A stretch of DNA of 64,000 nucleotides from an uncultured Actinomycetes bacterium (GTDB lineage: Bacteria > Actinomycetota > UBA4738 > HRBIN12), in NCBI GenBank assembly GCA_963704725.1, contig OY969934.1, positions 1,152,001 through 1,216,000 on the forward strand. Reading direction: 5' to 3'. The position numbers and the translations under genes were made by a program. The notes under the pieces were generated by a model that had not been told where the DNA came from, did no database searches, and saw only the letters and a program-made list of their open reading frames with translations. Positions 1 through 58,842 of this stretch are shown one piece after another; the first letter of the stretch is position 1, and each line of letters opens with the position of its first letter.

Positions 1-1726
1 ACGCTGGCCACGCCCAGCGACGAGGGCGTCGTCGCGGTGGAGACGGCGGCGGACGACCTCGACGCCGAGTCGGCGCCGGGGGCCATCCTGTTCATCCCGA
101 CGGGACGTTCCCGTACGACTTCGACCCGGACGCTGAACAGCGCCCAGTGCGGGAGCGCCACGAACACGAACACCACGTCGATCGTGGTGCTCGGCTCGCC
201 GAACGGTGACGAGTTCTTCGCCATCGACAACCTCGACGGCGCCGAGTTCAACACGGCCATCACGTGGGCCGTCGACATGGGTGGCAACACCGTCGGTGGG
301 ACGGACGAGTTCGAGATCGACGCCGCCGACCAGACCTCTGGCGGCGACAACATCGTCCTGACCAGCAGCACGTTCACCCTGAACGGCGGCGGTGGGCCGC
401 TGCTCGGCGTCGAGACCATCCAGGTCTTCGGCGGCGACGGCGACGACGTGGTCGACGGCTCGGCCGTCGGCGCCGGCACGACCCTGTTCCTCGAGGGCGA
501 CGCCGGAGACGACTGGCTCGCGCCCGGCCTCGCGGCACCGCAGACGGTGGCCGCGACGCCGATCGGCGACGAGGTCTTCGGCGGCGCCGGGACCGACACG
601 CTCAGCTACGGGACGCGGACCGACAGCACGGTCATCGACAACCGTCCGGGCCTCGCCGGCCACGACGCGAACGGTGACTGCGACGTGCTGGACATCGGCG
701 ACGAGGCCGACGTCCTGGACGACGTGTTCGAGATCCTGCAGACCGGCTCGGGCAACGACTGCCTGATCGGCGACGGCGGCGGGGTCGACGAGACGTTCAT
801 CCCCGGCGACGGTGACGACGACATCACCGGCGACGCTGCCGACGACGACGTCATCGACTGGTCGAGCTCCTCGGCCGCGATGTCGATCGACCCGGCCAAC
901 GGCACGGCCACCGGACAGGGCACCGACACCTACACCGACGTGTTCAACTTCGTCGGCTCGGCGTTCGACGACGTCCTGCTCTGGGACGGGACGACCGACG
1001 GGTTCGTCGGCGGCGACGGGGTCGACACGGTCGACGCCACGGCGGCGGTGACCGGCCAGGTCATCAACCTGGAGACGCTGGACAACCTGGGCGGCCTCGA
1101 GGTCGACACGCTCGAGAACGCGCTCGGTGGATCGGGCAACGACACGCTGACCGGCAACGACCTGCGGAACAACCTCGTGGGCAACGACGGCGACGACACG
1201 CTGAACGGTGCAGCCGGCAACGACTCGCTCGAAGGTGGGCTCGGCAACGACACCTTCTTCGGCGGCGTCGGGGCCGACCGGGTCAGCTTCGCCGCATCGG
1301 CGAACGGCGTGACGGCCGACCTCAGTCTCGGATTCGCCAGCGGCGAGGGCGATGACGCCTTCGGCCTGGACGTCGAGATCCTGGTCGGGTCCGACCACAA
1401 CGACACGTTCACCGGCGGCGGCGGGGCCACCACCCGGAACTTCCTGTTCCTGGGTGGCAAGGGCAACGACTCGCTGACGGGTTCGGGCAGCAACGACACG
1501 CTGCGCGGCGGTGGCGGCAACGACATCACCCGCGGCGCCAGTGGTGACGACACGATGTTCGGCGGCAAGGGCAACGACCGGATGTTCGGCGGTGCCGGCA
1601 CCGACATCGGCAAGGGCGGCCCTGGTGACGACGTCTGCAAGGGCGTCGAGATCGCCAAGAGCTGCGGAAGCCAGAGGCAACCCGGGTCGTACGGGCCTGG
1701 CTGCGCACGTCGCTCGCCTCGTCTAG
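1..1726 (+). CDS. Ca2+-binding RTX/hemolysin-type repeat protein, 5'-truncated; probable frameshift near 1670
   Basis: Frame open from base 1; many GGxGxDxL nonapeptides. The tracked ORF runs to 1851 through a terminator hairpin. Shifting frame at ~1670 gives ...KSCGS-RGNPGRTGLAAHVARLV* ending at TAG 1724-1726, just before the hairpin. Confidence 0.8.
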
Positions 1727-55252: not shown

Positions 55253-56224
55253 GTGATCACGAGCCGCGTGTACCGGGGCGGCAAGCTCGAGGAGGAGTCG
55301 GGGTTCGACCCCTCGGCGTTCGAGGCGTGCCGGGCCTCGGGCGAGCATCGCATGTGGATCGACGTCGTCGAACCCTCCGAGGAGGAGCTCGCCCTGCTCC
55401 AGGGCACGCTCGGGCTCCACGAGCTCTCGGTCGAGGACAGCCGTCGCTGGGGTCAGCGCCCCAAGGTCGAGTTCTACCCCGACTACGTCTTCGTCGTCCT
55501 GCACAGCCTGCGGATGCAGGACGACGACGACCTGGTCGACTCCGAGCTCCACCTGTTCGCGGGCCAGAAGTTCTACCTGCTCACGATCCGCCGACGGCCG
55601 CTGTTCGACTTCGAGCAGGCGGTGACGCGGGCCGGACGGGACACGGGCATCGTCCACGAGGGGATCGGGTTCCAGCTCTACCTGCTGCTCGACGAGGTCG
55701 TCGACGGATACCTCGACGTCATCGACCGGCTCGAGGACCTGTCCGACGACGTCGAGGAGCGGGTGTTCCGCGAGGAGGAGGCCGACGAGCTGCAGGAGCA
55801 GGTGTTCCGGCTCAAGCGCAAGGTCGTCCGCTTCCGGCGCGCCGTCGCTCCGATGCGCGAGGTGCTCGACCTGGTCGCCGAGCAGGGCGACGTTGTCACA
55901 CCGCAGCTCGCCCCGTACTACCGCGACGTCCAGGACCATGTGATCCGGGCGATCGAGCTCACCGACAACATCCGCGAGCTCCTCACCTCGGCGCTCGAGA
56001 CGCGGCTCGTCCAGACGTCGAACCGCCTCAACGTGGTGATGAAGCACCTGTCCGGATGGGCCGCGATCATCCTCGTCCCCACGCTGATCGCGGGCATCTA
56101 CGGCATGAACTTCGGCCACATGCCCGAGCTCGACTGGAGGCTCGGGTACCCGTTCGCGCTCGCGATGATGGTCGTCTCGGCGGTCGTGCTGTACCGCGTC
56201 TTCAAGAAGCGGGACTGGCTGTAG
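55253..56224 (+). CDS. corA: Mg/Co transporter CorA
   Basis: LH.L.VED...QRPKVE.Y, YYRDVQDH, IYGMNF.HMPEL. Confidence 0.95.
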   Translation: MITSRVYRGGKLEEESGFDPSAFEACRASGEHRMWIDVVEPSEEELALLQGTLGLHELSVEDSRRWGQRPKVEFYPDYVFVVLHSLRMQDDDDLVDSELHLFAGQKFYLLTIRRRPLFDFEQAVTRAGRDTGIVHEGIGFQLYLLLDEVVDGYLDVIDRLEDLSDDVEERVFREEEADELQEQVFRLKRKVVRFRRAVAPMREVLDLVAEQGDVVTPQLAPYYRDVQDHVIRAIELTDNIRELLTSALETRLVQTSNRLNVVMKHLSGWAAIILVPTLIAGIYGMNFGHMPELDWRLGYPFALAMMVVSAVVLYRVFKKRDWL

Positions 56225-56226
56225 CG

Positions 56227-56556
56227 GTGTGCCGGGCGCTCAAGGTGCTGTGTGTGGCGGAGGACGCCGCGTTGCTCGCGGCGCTGAAGCGCGCCGCGGT
56301 GTCGGCGGGGTGGGAGCTCACGCCGGGGGCCGCCTCCGAGGGGGAGGCGCTCCGCCAGCTCCACGAGGAGCGCCCGCTGGTCGTGGTGGTGTTCGGGGCG
56401 TTCGAGGCGTTCGTGGGCACGGCCCTGGACGCCTATCCCAACCTCCGCGTCGTGGCGGACCGGGACCTGCCCGGGGCGAGCGCCGTCGTGGGGTCGCTCG
56501 AGGACGTCCGGGACGCCGTCGTCTCGCGCCCGCGCCCGGGCGGTCCGGTCCGCTGA
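56227..56556 (+). CDS. Small degenerate receiver-like protein
   Basis: LKVLCVAED...EAL.QL...RP.VVVV; alternating beta/alpha pattern; starts 2 nt after corA. Confidence 0.55.
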   Translation: MCRALKVLCVAEDAALLAALKRAAVSAGWELTPGAASEGEALRQLHEERPLVVVVFGAFEAFVGTALDAYPNLRVVADRDLPGASAVVGSLEDVRDAVVSRPRPGGPVR

Positions 56557-56566
56557 TCGGGTTCCC

Positions 56567-57007
56567 TCAGGCGCACCCGGCCCAGGCGCTCCACGACCCC
56601 GAGGCGGCCGCCATGCGGATCGACACGATGGCGTTGGCGCGGCCGTTGAACACCGATCGGTCGGGCTGGCCCCAGCGGTCGGCGCGATCGGGCCAGTACG
56701 GCTGCGCCTGCTGGAAGAGCCCCGCGTACCCGTTGGGGTTGTAGGCCTCGGGTCGGAGCTCCGACTCGCACGCCGCGACGGCGACCGCGTGCGCCGGACT
56801 CCCGGGGCTGTCCCACCGGGCCGCCACGCATCGGATCAGCTGCTTGATCTGCCAGGTGCCCCGCCGCCAGTCGTAGTCGCAGACCCTGCCGGGGACCCGA
56901 GGCGCGGCGCCGGCCGTCCCGATCGTCGCCGGGAACAGGAGCGCCGCGATGAGCGCCGCGAGCAGCGCGCGGCGGATGTGGATGGCTCGAACCATGATGC
57001 GTCTCAC
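56567..57007 (-). CDS. Secreted lysozyme-fold/lytic-transglycosylase-like protein
   Basis: Signal peptide (AGA|AP); VAACES...P.A.N....AGLFQ....W; W.AW. Confidence 0.75.
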
Positions 57008-57045
57008 CCCCGCGATGGGCTCCGGCCGGCTGCCGGGCCCGCGCC

Positions 57046-57246
57046 GGTCCGGCGTGCGCCGGACCCGCTCGCGTCAGGTCGTGGGTGCCCGATCACCTCC
57101 TTCGGTCTCGGTGGCTGGATCGACCTGTTGACGCGCGCGACGCGCCCGGCCCGCTCCGACTCCCTCCGGGCGCTCGGTCCGTCGCCGGACGCGCAGGACC
57201 AAGCGTGGAGGGGGAGGGAGGATCGGGCCGAACGCCCGTTCGCGTC
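57046..57246 (-). ncRNA. Candidate structured ncRNA or 5' leader
   Basis: TAGGGT -10 at 57258-57253; three consecutive stem-loops (57246-57139, 57135-57070, 57065-57046); no convincing ORF. Confidence 0.55.
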
Positions 57247-57348
57247 CCGACGACCCTAGCGGGCGCCGGTGACGATCGGCAATGCACTCCCGTGCAACGT
57301 GTTCGAGTCGGTCGGCGGGCTCCCGGCGGCGCCTCGTACGATGGGGTG

Positions 57349-58269
57349 GTGGCACACAAGGTCCTGCTGGCGGCCCCGCGCGGCTACTGCGCCGGCGTCG
57401 AGCGCGCCGTGGACGCCGTCGAGCGCGCCCTCCTCGCGCACGGCGCGCCCGTGTACGTGCGCAAGCAGATCGTGCACAACGCCCACGTCGTCCGGGACCT
57501 CGAGGCCAAGGGCGCGGTGTTCGTGGACGCGGAGTCCGAGGTGCCGGAGGGCGCGGTGGTGGTGCTGTCCGCGCACGGGGTGGCGCCCGAGGTCTACGAG
57601 AACGCCCGGGCCCGCCGGCTCACCGTGCTCGACGCCACCTGTCCGCTCGTGACGAAGGTGCATCTCGAGGCCCGCCGGTTCGCCGGCGACGCGCGGACGA
57701 TCGTGCTCATCGGCCACGCCGGGCACGAGGAGGTCGTCGGGACGACGGGCCAGGCGCCCGACCGGACGGTCCTCGTGCAGACCGTCGCCGAGGCCCGGAC
57801 GGTCGAGGTCCCCGACCCCGATCGCCTGTCCTACCTGACGCAGACGACCCTGTCGGTGGACGAGACCGACGAGATCATCGCCGCCCTCCGCGAGCGCTTC
57901 CCGGCCATCCAGAGCCCGCCCCGAGAGGACATCTGCTACGCCACCCAGAACCGCCAGGACGCGGTGAAGGAGGTGGCCCGGCGCTCCGACGTCGTCCTGG
58001 TGATCGGCTCGGACAACTCGTCGAACTCGAATCGGCTGGCCGAGGTGGCCCGCGAGCTCGGCACGCCGGCCCATCTCGTGGACGACGAGACCGAGGTCGA
58101 CCCGGCGTGGCTCGACGGCGTCGAGGTGGTCGGCCTCACCTCCGGGGCCAGCGCCCCCGACTGGCTGGTCGAGCGGATGCTCGGGTGGCTGGCCTCGCTC
58201 GGCGCGACGGAGGTCGAAGAGGTCCGCCTGGCCGAGGAGCATCTGCGCTTCTCGGACGTGCGCCTGTAG
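57349..58269 (+). CDS. ispH: 4-hydroxy-3-methylbut-2-enyl diphosphate reductase
   Basis: [51 protein letters not shown]. Confidence 0.97.
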
Positions 58270-58281
58270 CGGGGGGCGAGC

Positions 58282-58842
58282 TCAGCTCCAGGCCGAGAAC
58301 TGGTCGCGGTCCTCGTCGTCGGACGGGAACTGCGGCACGGCGACGAGCGTGTTCGTCGACCGGACCCCCTCGATGCGATGGATCCGATCGAGCACGACCC
58401 GGGCCGTCTCCTCCCATCCCAGGGCGATCTCGGCCAGGATGTCGTGGTCGCCGGCGACGAGCGAGATGCCGGAGATCTCGTCCATCTCCGCCAGGAGCTC
58501 GAAGACGTGACTGCTCGTCCCGGGCTCCGTCCGGATCCGGACGAACGAGGCCTCGCCCGCCCGCTGCATCGGCGCGGCGACGGCAAGCCCGCCTCCCGCG
58601 ATGCCCGACACGTGGGCCGGGACGACCGGCGTGGTCAGCGTCCGCTCCACGCCCTCGATCACGTGGATGGCTCGAAGGATGTGGTACGCGATCCCGGTGA
58701 GATCGGGGCCGTGGACCGAGGCCAGCACGTCCCAGTCGCCGACGACGGTCACCGCGCGGCGCAAGTCCTTCGTGCCGAGCAGCTGGGTGACGACGTCCTC
58801 GACCCGCCCGGGCCTCACCCGCACGTAGACGAAGGCGTCCAC
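58282..58842 (-). CDS. Tandem Lrp/AsnC ligand-binding (RAM) domains without HTH
   Basis: Two units of AFV..R..PG...V.G..D.L....I..IEGV..T.T. Confidence 0.75.
   Translation of the reverse strand: MDAFVYVRVRPGRVEDVVTQLLGTKDLRRAVTVVGDWDVLASVHGPDLTGIAYHILRAIHVIEGVERTLTTPVVPAHVSGIAGGGLAVAAPMQRAGEASFVRIRTEPGTSSHVFELLAEMDEISGISLVAGDHDILAEIALGWEETARVVLDRIHRIEGVRSTNTLVAVPQFPSDDEDRDQFSAWS

Follow-up and report, generated by a model that had tools for sequence, protein, structure and literature searches.

We report a conserved, covarying two-domain leader RNA of ~250 nucleotides (nt) that ends in the Shine-Dalgarno (SD) sequence and AUG of a gene for a secreted SLT/lysozyme-like protein in an uncultured Actinomycetes bacterium. 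It lies in a 64,000-nt stretch of contig OY969934.1 (NCBI GenBank assembly GCA_963704725.1, positions 1,152,001 to 1,216,000), here called the window, whose numbering we use throughout. The leader (57246-56993, minus strand) occupies the 350-nt divergent spacer between ispH and the 142-amino-acid (aa) open reading frame (ORF) of the SLT-like gene. We propose, with a probability of roughly 55%, that it is a lineage-specific cis-acting element that gates translation of one secreted peptidoglycan-cleaving (muralytic) enzyme per genome, by means of an SD-masking pseudoknot, most likely set by a ligand, and a standby or decoy SD.

A preliminary description made from the sequence of the window alone had placed a structured RNA at 57010..57260 and suggested either a new riboswitch or leader, or a divergent Ms1/6S-like small RNA (sRNA). 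The first suggestion was supported, as the RNA covaries, occurs throughout its lineage, is absent from Rfam and ends in an SD and AUG; a riboswitch is a candidate function. The features named in that interval were placed correctly, and the element extends further than the interval, to the SD of the gene (57011-57004) and its ATG (56995-56993).

Conservation and covariation of the leader

The predicted minimum free energy (MFE) of 57246-56990 was -156.5 kcal/mol, compared with -133.2 +/- 5.3 kcal/mol for 200 shuffled sequences (z = -4.43; no shuffle was as stable). When the flanks were included, z was -3.37. The MFE fold recovered the ~108-nt irregular hairpin of the preliminary description, a stem CAGGTCG/CGACCTG, and the GC hairpin, located at 57065-57046, that had also been described.

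The 108-nt 5' domain (57139..57246, minus strand) is closed in the MFE fold by GACGCG (57246-41) and CGCGTC (57144-39), and the first nucleotides of the RNA thereby pair with the segment just before helix P1. This closing stem is conserved as a structure. Duplexes between its two strands had a mean predicted energy of -25.2 kcal/mol for cognate and -17.8 kcal/mol for non-cognate combinations, and the cognate combination was the better in 72 of 80 cases. In a consensus fold (RNAalifold) of 63 long-form sequences, each of its columns combined between three and five kinds of pair (for instance CG 23, UA 11, AU 11, UG 5, and GC 3). Inside the domain, a C-rich strand (57223-57207) is paired to a G-rich strand. 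A small 5'-proximal hairpin, Pa (CGGGC-GUUCG-GCCCG, 57224..57238, minus strand), has counterparts in relatives that were recognized by eye (CGGAC/GUCCG, GCGGA/UCCGC, and GAACGG/CCGUUC).

The 3' domain spans 57126 to 56993 and contains helices P1 to P4, all on the minus strand. The 5' strand of P1, AGGTCG (57121..57126), pairs with CGACCT (57081-57076; feature 57076..57081), and GACCU is found there in 50 of 56 copies. This is the inner part of what the preliminary description called stem 2, and it is conserved; the outer part, CGCGT/ACGCG, proved to be specific to this genome and competes with P2. P2 begins one nucleotide past P1 and is formed by CGCGA (57069..57073) and TCGCG (57011..57015). 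In most relatives P2 reads CCGCGG/CCGCGG, and the present sequence has an A-U pair where relatives mostly have G-C. P2 encloses P3, a GC hairpin (GGTCCGGC-GCAC-GCCGGACC, 57046..57065) that differs in length and sequence between relatives, and P4 (CCGGC-AGCCG-GCCGG, 57022..57036), whose loop follows the pattern NGCCR typical of the family. Distant families have a single hairpin with the loop GCNGAUAA in place of P3 and P4, and the P2-enclosed domain is accordingly a three-way junction in some families and a single hairpin in others.

We compared the helices in two alignments. Alignment A1 holds 52 MAFFT-aligned sequences, on which manually placed helices were put to the test; 89.6% of cells were paired, 11 of 24 pairs changed on both sides, and 0 of 500 shuffles did as well. 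Controls in which the partner strand was slid reached 36-48% pairing on A1. Alignment A3 holds 89 distinct model-aligned sequences and leans towards the covariance model; 88.6% of its cells were paired and 15 of 19 pairs changed on both sides. The individual helices differed in how far they varied. P1 was paired in 90.2% (A1) and 87.1% (A3) of cells with two of six pairs changing on both sides, and one of the two C-G variants of its outer pair comes from a genome flagged as unpublished (G011, locus L006). P2 was paired in 96.4% (A1) and 95.4% (A3) of cells, with all six pairs changing on both sides in A3, and in P4 this held for seven of seven pairs in A3 and six of seven in A1. RNAalifold on the MAFFT alignment returned fragments of the structure only. 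We conclude that the stem closing the 5' domain covaries, as do P1, P2, and P4. A conserved covarying structure within the 5' untranslated region (UTR), one of the marks of a riboswitch, is thus present.

Other pairings were considered. A proximal partner for the 5' strand of P2 (A1 columns 79-83/147-151) was rejected, since it gave 74.2% pairing, a value reached by 357 of 500 shuffles, and the distal partner was favoured. The preliminary description had also proposed that GCCCGATC (57228-21) pairs alternatively with GATCGGGC (57094-87). The pairing exists, without robust conservation: cognate strands were better in 49 of 80 cases (p = 0.03, among related sequences), and no comparison of cognate and non-cognate strands for loop-to-5'-domain or linker-to-5'-domain pairing gave a better result than this.

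A start-less SD, an anti-SD-like pentamer and the SD of the gene

The loop of P1 contains AAGGAGGTGATC (57091..57102, minus strand), an exact complement of the organism's own 16S rRNA 3' tail, GGATCACCTCCTTTCT. No ATG, GTG, or TTG follows at normal spacing. Both properties had been claimed before and were confirmed, the first against the 16S rRNA of this genome. We consider this start-less SD a candidate decoy or standby site. Leaving aside the complement of the rRNA gene, two sites were listed in the genome at which 12 or more bases can pair with the 16S tail; the second site, AGGAGGTGATCC, lies outside the window, at about 1646567 (+) of G000:C1.

We examined 56 unique copies of the leader that were found by protein homology or by covariance model rather than by pattern scan. 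In these, the start-less SD reads GGAGG in 56 of 56 copies, GGAGGUG in 55, and AGGAGGUGA in 48, and a conserved block, A-GGAGG-UGA-(U), corresponds to what the 16S tail can pair with along 10-12 nt. The stretch before it is an A-rich, G-poor linker (57103..57120, minus strand), with 34.5% A and 22.7% G compared with 20.8% and 34.0% over the whole element in 89 unique copies.

Downstream in the same loop, 1-2 nt 5' of the 3' strand of P1, lies the anti-SD-like pentamer CACCC (57083..57087, minus strand). It is present in 54 of 56 copies, and in 49 of them it stands 6-7 nt downstream of the start-less SD block. CACCC is complementary to the GGGUG of the SD of the gene. This real SD, GGGGGTGA (57004..57011, minus strand), has its first G closing P2 in the common register, and its GGGTG (57009-57005), the proposed pseudoknot strand, comes directly after the 3' strand of P2. 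GGGUG is found in all 56 copies and GGGGGUG in 50; in 51, 8-11 nt separate GGGUG from the start codon. An AUG stands exactly at the end of the covariance model and opens a muralytic gene in 54 of the 56 copies. The invariant motifs that appear single-stranded are GGAGGUGA, CACCCA, GACCUACC, and GGGGGUGA.

Energy calculations predict a duplex of -23.2 kcal/mol between the start-less SD and the 16S tail. For the real SD the corresponding value is -17.0 kcal/mol, or -10.4 kcal/mol if P2 is formed. CACCC is predicted to pair at -10.2 kcal/mol with the real SD and at -6.9 kcal/mol with the start-less SD. In nested ensembles, the mean predicted unpaired probability was 0.58 for the linker, the least paired part of the element by prediction, and fell to 0.38 in the start-less SD and 0.20 in the real SD, against 0.41 overall. 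From the position and complementarity of the two blocks, we infer that CACCC and GGGUG pair as an H-type pseudoknot that would mask the SD.

Enzymes encoded behind the leader

Among 89 unique copies, the gene behind the leader was SLT-like in 68 by BLAST (and in one more, L010, by tblastn), an Rpf-type transglycosylase in eight, and RlpA-like with a DPBB domain in eight; in four it was truncated or disrupted. Pfam searches of 26 of the proteins found PF06737 in eight and PF03330 in eight. Three of the eight DPBB examples come from genomes flagged as unpublished, G029 (L197) and G075 (L190, two copies). Several gene families of related function are another mark of riboswitches, and they are present here, though all at one syntenic locus. 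The occurrence of three enzyme families behind one leader argues for an RNA that senses a signal and against autoregulation by the gene product.

The neighbourhood is constant. Of the 71 unique copies for which 450 nt or more of upstream sequence was available, 70 have ispH as the gene diverging upstream of the leader, and this adjacency holds for every muralytic family behind the leader. The leader stayed put while the enzyme gene behind it was exchanged. The sole exception is the second of two tandem copies (L190:481-595 and 1163-1285, plus strand), where each of two DPBB genes is preceded by a 3' domain of its own and only the first adjoins ispH; this observation rests wholly on G075, flagged as unpublished.

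Another locus, L200 (686-827, minus strand), has the core substitutions GGAGGAG, CACCAA, and GACGU, and in place of a muralytic gene a 96-aa ORF rich in proline and arginine comes after it; the locus is probably decaying. We count the coincidence of a disrupted ORF with three substitutions in the core blocks in favour of the standby reading proposed below.

The 142-aa ORF of the window (56567..56995, minus strand, ATG 56995-56993, stop at 56567) has the ES...GLFQ motif of lysozyme-like transglycosylases, and its sequence begins with a hydrophobic, signal-like segment. Its Pfam SLT score of 19.0 bits is under the cut-off of 21.3 bits, which three scanned orthologues pass (22.1-22.5 bits). A profile of 36 orthologues matched the catalytic region of C-type lysozymes weakly (E = 0.004), and a sequence search of the PDB with the single protein gave no match.

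Distribution

The genomes searched are samples of their groups, and absences mean that an element was not found among those searched; the genome tallies of the leader in the order, class, and phylum, of the DAC domain and ydaO in the order, and of the SLT-like gene include genomes flagged as unpublished (G011, G029, G075, G103, G158, G182, and G037). By protein similarity, 26 of 41 related genomes have the SLT-like gene. An nhmmer search with the leader matched just upstream of the SLT-like gene in 16 of 29 other loci fetched, and the alignment of the matched loci contained long invariant blocks.

An exact-pattern scan with three invariant blocks against about 185,000 species genomes returned at least 120 stretches. 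At least 62 were true leader copies, 41 recognized by regular expression and 21 by the covariance model at 34 bits or more; the other 58 were rejected as chance or partial matches (28 bits or less). The titled true copies among the matches listed were all metagenome-assembled genomes labelled only as Actinomycetota, Actinomycetes, or Actinobacteria bacterium.

Covariance model R1 found exactly one copy in the genome studied here and matched 90 of 151 genomes of the order (69 of 79 in family f1). In a search at class level, in which every genome drawn was labelled as the same order or closer, it matched 104 of 151 genomes (95 of 115 in family f1). The leader is almost always present once per genome. 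Of 151 genomes drawn from across the phylum, the broader model R2 matched 10, and eight of these belong to the class. We rejected the two matches outside the class (G220 and G268, 26-28 bits) as members, as they had neither the start-less SD nor CACCC, so that no convincing copy outside the class was found among the phylum genomes sampled. A partial second copy in family f1 (L213:1501-1587, plus strand, 24 bits) has AGGUC, GGGAGGUG, GACCUACCG, and AUG and has neither CACCC nor GGGUGA.

Relation to known RNA families and cyclic di-AMP

No Rfam family matched the window at gathering thresholds. A scan of 56900-57420 at E<=10 gave three matches at chance level (E = 2.3-4.6), and no Rfam 15 family matched at E<=1 here or in the loci of 19 relatives. 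The novelty and homology checks recommended with the preliminary description thus came out in favour of a new element: no known family was matched, and the collected homologues contain covarying helices.

In other Actinomycetota, genes of this kind are typically preceded by the ydaO riboswitch, which responds to cyclic di-AMP (c-di-AMP); in Streptomyces, ydaO-like leaders are found on six to seven genes for cell-wall hydrolases, including rpfA (PMC10117811). In C. glutamicum, a c-di-AMP riboswitch precedes a gene for a cell-wall peptidase (PMC9960051). The present leader resembles ydaO in being a structured 5' leader before secreted cell-wall hydrolases, including Rpf-type enzymes, in Actinomycetota. 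It differs in having two domains, a start-less SD, and a proposed SD-masking pseudoknot, and it has no similarity to the ydaO covariance model. Control here is probably translational, whereas rpfA is controlled by termination.

The absence of ydaO signatures, noted in the preliminary description, agrees with the lack of a match to RF00379 in the window or, at E<=10, in 56900-57420. The messenger itself also appears to be missing. ydaO was found in none of 81 genomes of the order, the one studied here among them, although a control search detected it in B. subtilis and C. glutamicum. The diadenylate cyclase (DAC) domain (PF02457) was likewise found in none of the 81, this genome (G000) included, and it was present in 66 of the 94 other genomes sampled across the phylum.

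Within its 3.45 Mb the genome encodes 22 class-III nucleotide cyclase domains as well as 13 GGDEF domains, a heavy investment in cyclic-nucleotide signalling; RelA/SpoT is encoded too.

The M. tuberculosis rpfB switch is a transcriptional attenuator that is reported to be restricted to pathogenic mycobacteria (PMC6009663). Like the present leader, it lies in the 5' UTR of an Rpf gene and has a link to the methylerythritol phosphate (MEP) pathway, through rpfB-ksgA-ispE there and divergent ispH here (PMC6009663). It differs in that no terminator-like site was found at the present locus, whose host belongs to a different, uncultured class; the two were compared by description only. In the literature searched, which excluded supplements and subscription-only papers, we found no description of the leader motif. 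The nearest items were the rpfB switch (PMC6009663) and the Streptococcus YjbJ motif (PMC11109978). Cis-regulatory leaders, or riboswitch candidates, are a known kind of element; the family, the placing of a start-less SD within the fold, and the role in a group that lacks c-di-AMP are new within our searches.

A model for translational control

We propose the following mechanism. The real SD, GGGGGUGA, is placed 8-11 nt before the AUG and begins either within P2's 3' strand or straight after it. Pairing of its GGGUG with the CACCC of the P1 loop would create the H-type pseudoknot, and this, together with P2, would hide the entire SD when the RNA is fully folded. The start-less SD would meanwhile be offered in the P1 loop on the A-rich, weakly structured linker, 6-7 nt 5' of CACCC. 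As a standby or decoy site it could hold a 30S ribosomal subunit, which would then cover CACCC and, since P1 abuts P2, would be adjacent to the real SD. If the pseudoknot opened, a subunit waiting at the standby site would proceed to initiation. The balance between open and closed forms would be set by an effector, most likely a small-molecule or second-messenger ligand of the conserved core other than c-di-AMP. We found no terminator-like site in 56500-57500, which fits translational control.

Parts of this scheme have precedents. In tisB of E. coli, a sequestered ribosome-binding site is served by a site ~100 nt upstream, and a pseudoknot in the RNA is essential (PMC7708055). A similar distance, ~85-90 nt, lies here between the start-less SD and the putatively masked SD 3' of it, and the two come together through P1 and P2. 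The tisB standby site differs in being single-stranded and not a perfect SD, and the standby function proposed here is predicted from sequence. tisB is moreover a type I toxin in Enterobacteria that is activated by mRNA processing, and there is no homology. In preQ1-class riboswitches the SD is part of an H-type pseudoknot whose stability sets ribosome access (PMC9410914). Drawing the SD into such a pseudoknot, as we propose here, would be a shared trait; the preQ1 aptamers differ in being small and in matching Rfam, whereas the present RNA is ~250 nt long and has two domains.

A narrower reading, which we advance only tentatively, is that the leader comprises the aptamer and expression platform of a new riboswitch class. 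It would control Rpf, RlpA, and SLT enzymes in a class without c-di-AMP and ydaO by responding to another signal, with the start-less SD pre-loading the 30S subunit. Candidate signals that this genome could make are cyclic AMP, cyclic di-GMP, and (p)ppGpp. A cell-wall or isoprenoid precursor is a further candidate because the linkage to ispH is universal.

Several points weigh against translational gating by a sensed signal. The CACCC and GGGUG columns are almost invariant and never covary (A1), and comparison can neither confirm nor refute their pairing because both blocks are invariant. P1 is badly kept in distant families, where its middle U-A becomes G.A, A.A, or C.A without compensation. 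A variable P2-enclosed domain is atypical of a ligand pocket. The shuffle and Wilcoxon figures overstate independence, since the sequences are phylogenetically related. The position of the leader at one ispH locus everywhere makes the gene families replacements at that locus rather than independent recruitments. A very strong start-less SD could equally trap ribosomes and repress translation. Finally, the binding of 30S subunits and of a ligand is predicted, as are the promoter of the leader, its 5' end, and transcription itself.

Alternative explanations

We also weighed explanations in which the leader does not switch in response to a small molecule. It could be a constitutive mRNA stabilizer, in which a 5'-end stem and a start-less SD holding a 30S subunit block 5'-end-dependent decay and the rest of the RNA is scaffold. 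Start-less SDs of this type (STAB-SD) were reportedly described in Bacillus by Agaisse and Lereclus in 1996. In mycobacteria a polypurine sequence stabilizes katG mRNA (PMC2358910). The leader shares with STAB-SDs a start-less SD in the 5' UTR that is complementary to the 16S 3' end, here over 10-12 nt, and its closing stem begins at the predicted 5' end. It differs from them in that the SD lies inside a covarying structure, ~145 nt from the predicted 5' end and behind a large structured domain, and is directly followed by the anti-SD-like CACCC. Stabilization would leave unexplained why CACCC is invariant, 1-2 nt from P1, and complementary to the real SD, why a covarying P2/P4 junction stands immediately before that SD, and why so elaborate an element is restricted to muralytic genes at one locus. 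We regard this explanation as unlikely.

Slightly less probable still is that a trans-acting macromolecule operates the leader, either an RNA-binding protein or a C-rich sRNA that pairs with the G-rich, SD-like blocks, in place of a small ligand or the ribosome on its own. The long invariant motifs that appear single-stranded are typical of sites recognized by proteins or RNAs, and the P2-enclosed domain is replaceable. However, no candidate partner gene is linked to the leader, the constant neighbour being ispH, and a multi-helix, pseudoknot-capable architecture with conserved loops exceeds the needs of a simple binding site.

An RNA thermometer, or a general folding barrier whose SD-masking structure melts with temperature or another physical cue and has no specific effector, seems improbable. 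The real SD is indeed predicted to be mostly paired, and the pseudoknot helix is short (-10.2 kcal/mol). Still, ~30 invariant nucleotides and two covarying multi-helix domains go far beyond what known thermometers need, and a structure of such high G+C content and stability (-156.5 kcal/mol) would not melt in the physiological range.

A trans-acting Ms1/6S-like sRNA is the least credible explanation and is rejected: besides the size and high structure of the element it had in its favour a resemblance of GGGCACCCACG to Ms1 RNAs noted in the preliminary description, and that segment turned out to contain the invariant CACCC complementary to the SD of the gene itself. The element matches no Rfam family at E<=1 here or in the loci of 19 relatives, in 54 of 56 copies runs into the SD and start codon of a muralytic gene, and is not separated from the ORF by any terminator-like site.

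Putative promoter region and neighbouring genes

On the minus strand, a -10-like hexamer TAGGGT (57258-57253; feature 57253..57258) stands 7 nt before the GACGCG that begins at 57246, as originally described. A -35-like hexamer, TTGCCG (57277..57282, minus strand), is predicted 18 nt upstream of it, and relatives have TTGYCG-like hexamers at the same spacing to the -10 as here. Among 76 loci with at least 300 nt upstream, 42 have exactly TAGGGT at the corresponding position; most of the remainder have TANNNT, and 13 have none by the regular expression used. An E. coli-type promoter scan found no sites, a result that is uninformative for an actinobacterial TANNNT promoter. A search of sequencing runs yielded eight runs with word shares of at most 0.10; one was labelled metatranscriptomic and marked 'probably DNA', and none was an RNA run.

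Just upstream of the -35, 46 of the 76 loci carry a palindrome, TGACY-N3-6-RGTCA, ~35-60 nt before the -10 of the relatives. In this genome the corresponding palindrome is TGCAC-GGGA-GTGCA (57283-57296, minus strand). The TGACY-N3-6-RGTCA palindrome is probably an operator common to both divergent promoters. The divergent gene is ispH (LytB; 57352..58269, plus strand; Pfam LYTB, E = 9.4e-96).

Of the flanking genes, both ordinary, one encodes a CorA-type Mg2+ transporter (55253-56224, plus strand) and the other a protein in which two Lrp/AsnC ligand-binding domains were recognized (58282-58842, minus strand). Elsewhere in the genome, outside the window (G000:C1, about 2.9528-2.9556 Mb), ~10 copies of a ~39-nt string recur at a spacing of ~300 nt and probably belong to a gene for a tandem-repeat protein.

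Implications

A cell can be killed by its own muralytic enzymes, Rpf and RlpA among them; in the Actinomycetota studied, the c-di-AMP (ydaO) riboswitch restrains them. A class-level uncultured lineage, without the c-di-AMP messenger among the genomes sampled, has a different RNA, larger and conserved to an equal degree, before genes of the kinds that carry c-di-AMP riboswitches in other Actinomycetota. The leader is a well-defined orphan riboswitch candidate with a clear regulon, and models R1 and R2 with alignments A1 and A3 could seed an Rfam family. It also offers an example from nature of a near-perfect start-less SD held in a fold beside a putatively masked SD. This raises the questions of how far standby or decoy ribosome binding acts in regulation beyond enterobacterial toxin mRNAs, and of what may replace c-di-AMP in the control of cell-wall hydrolysis in this lineage.

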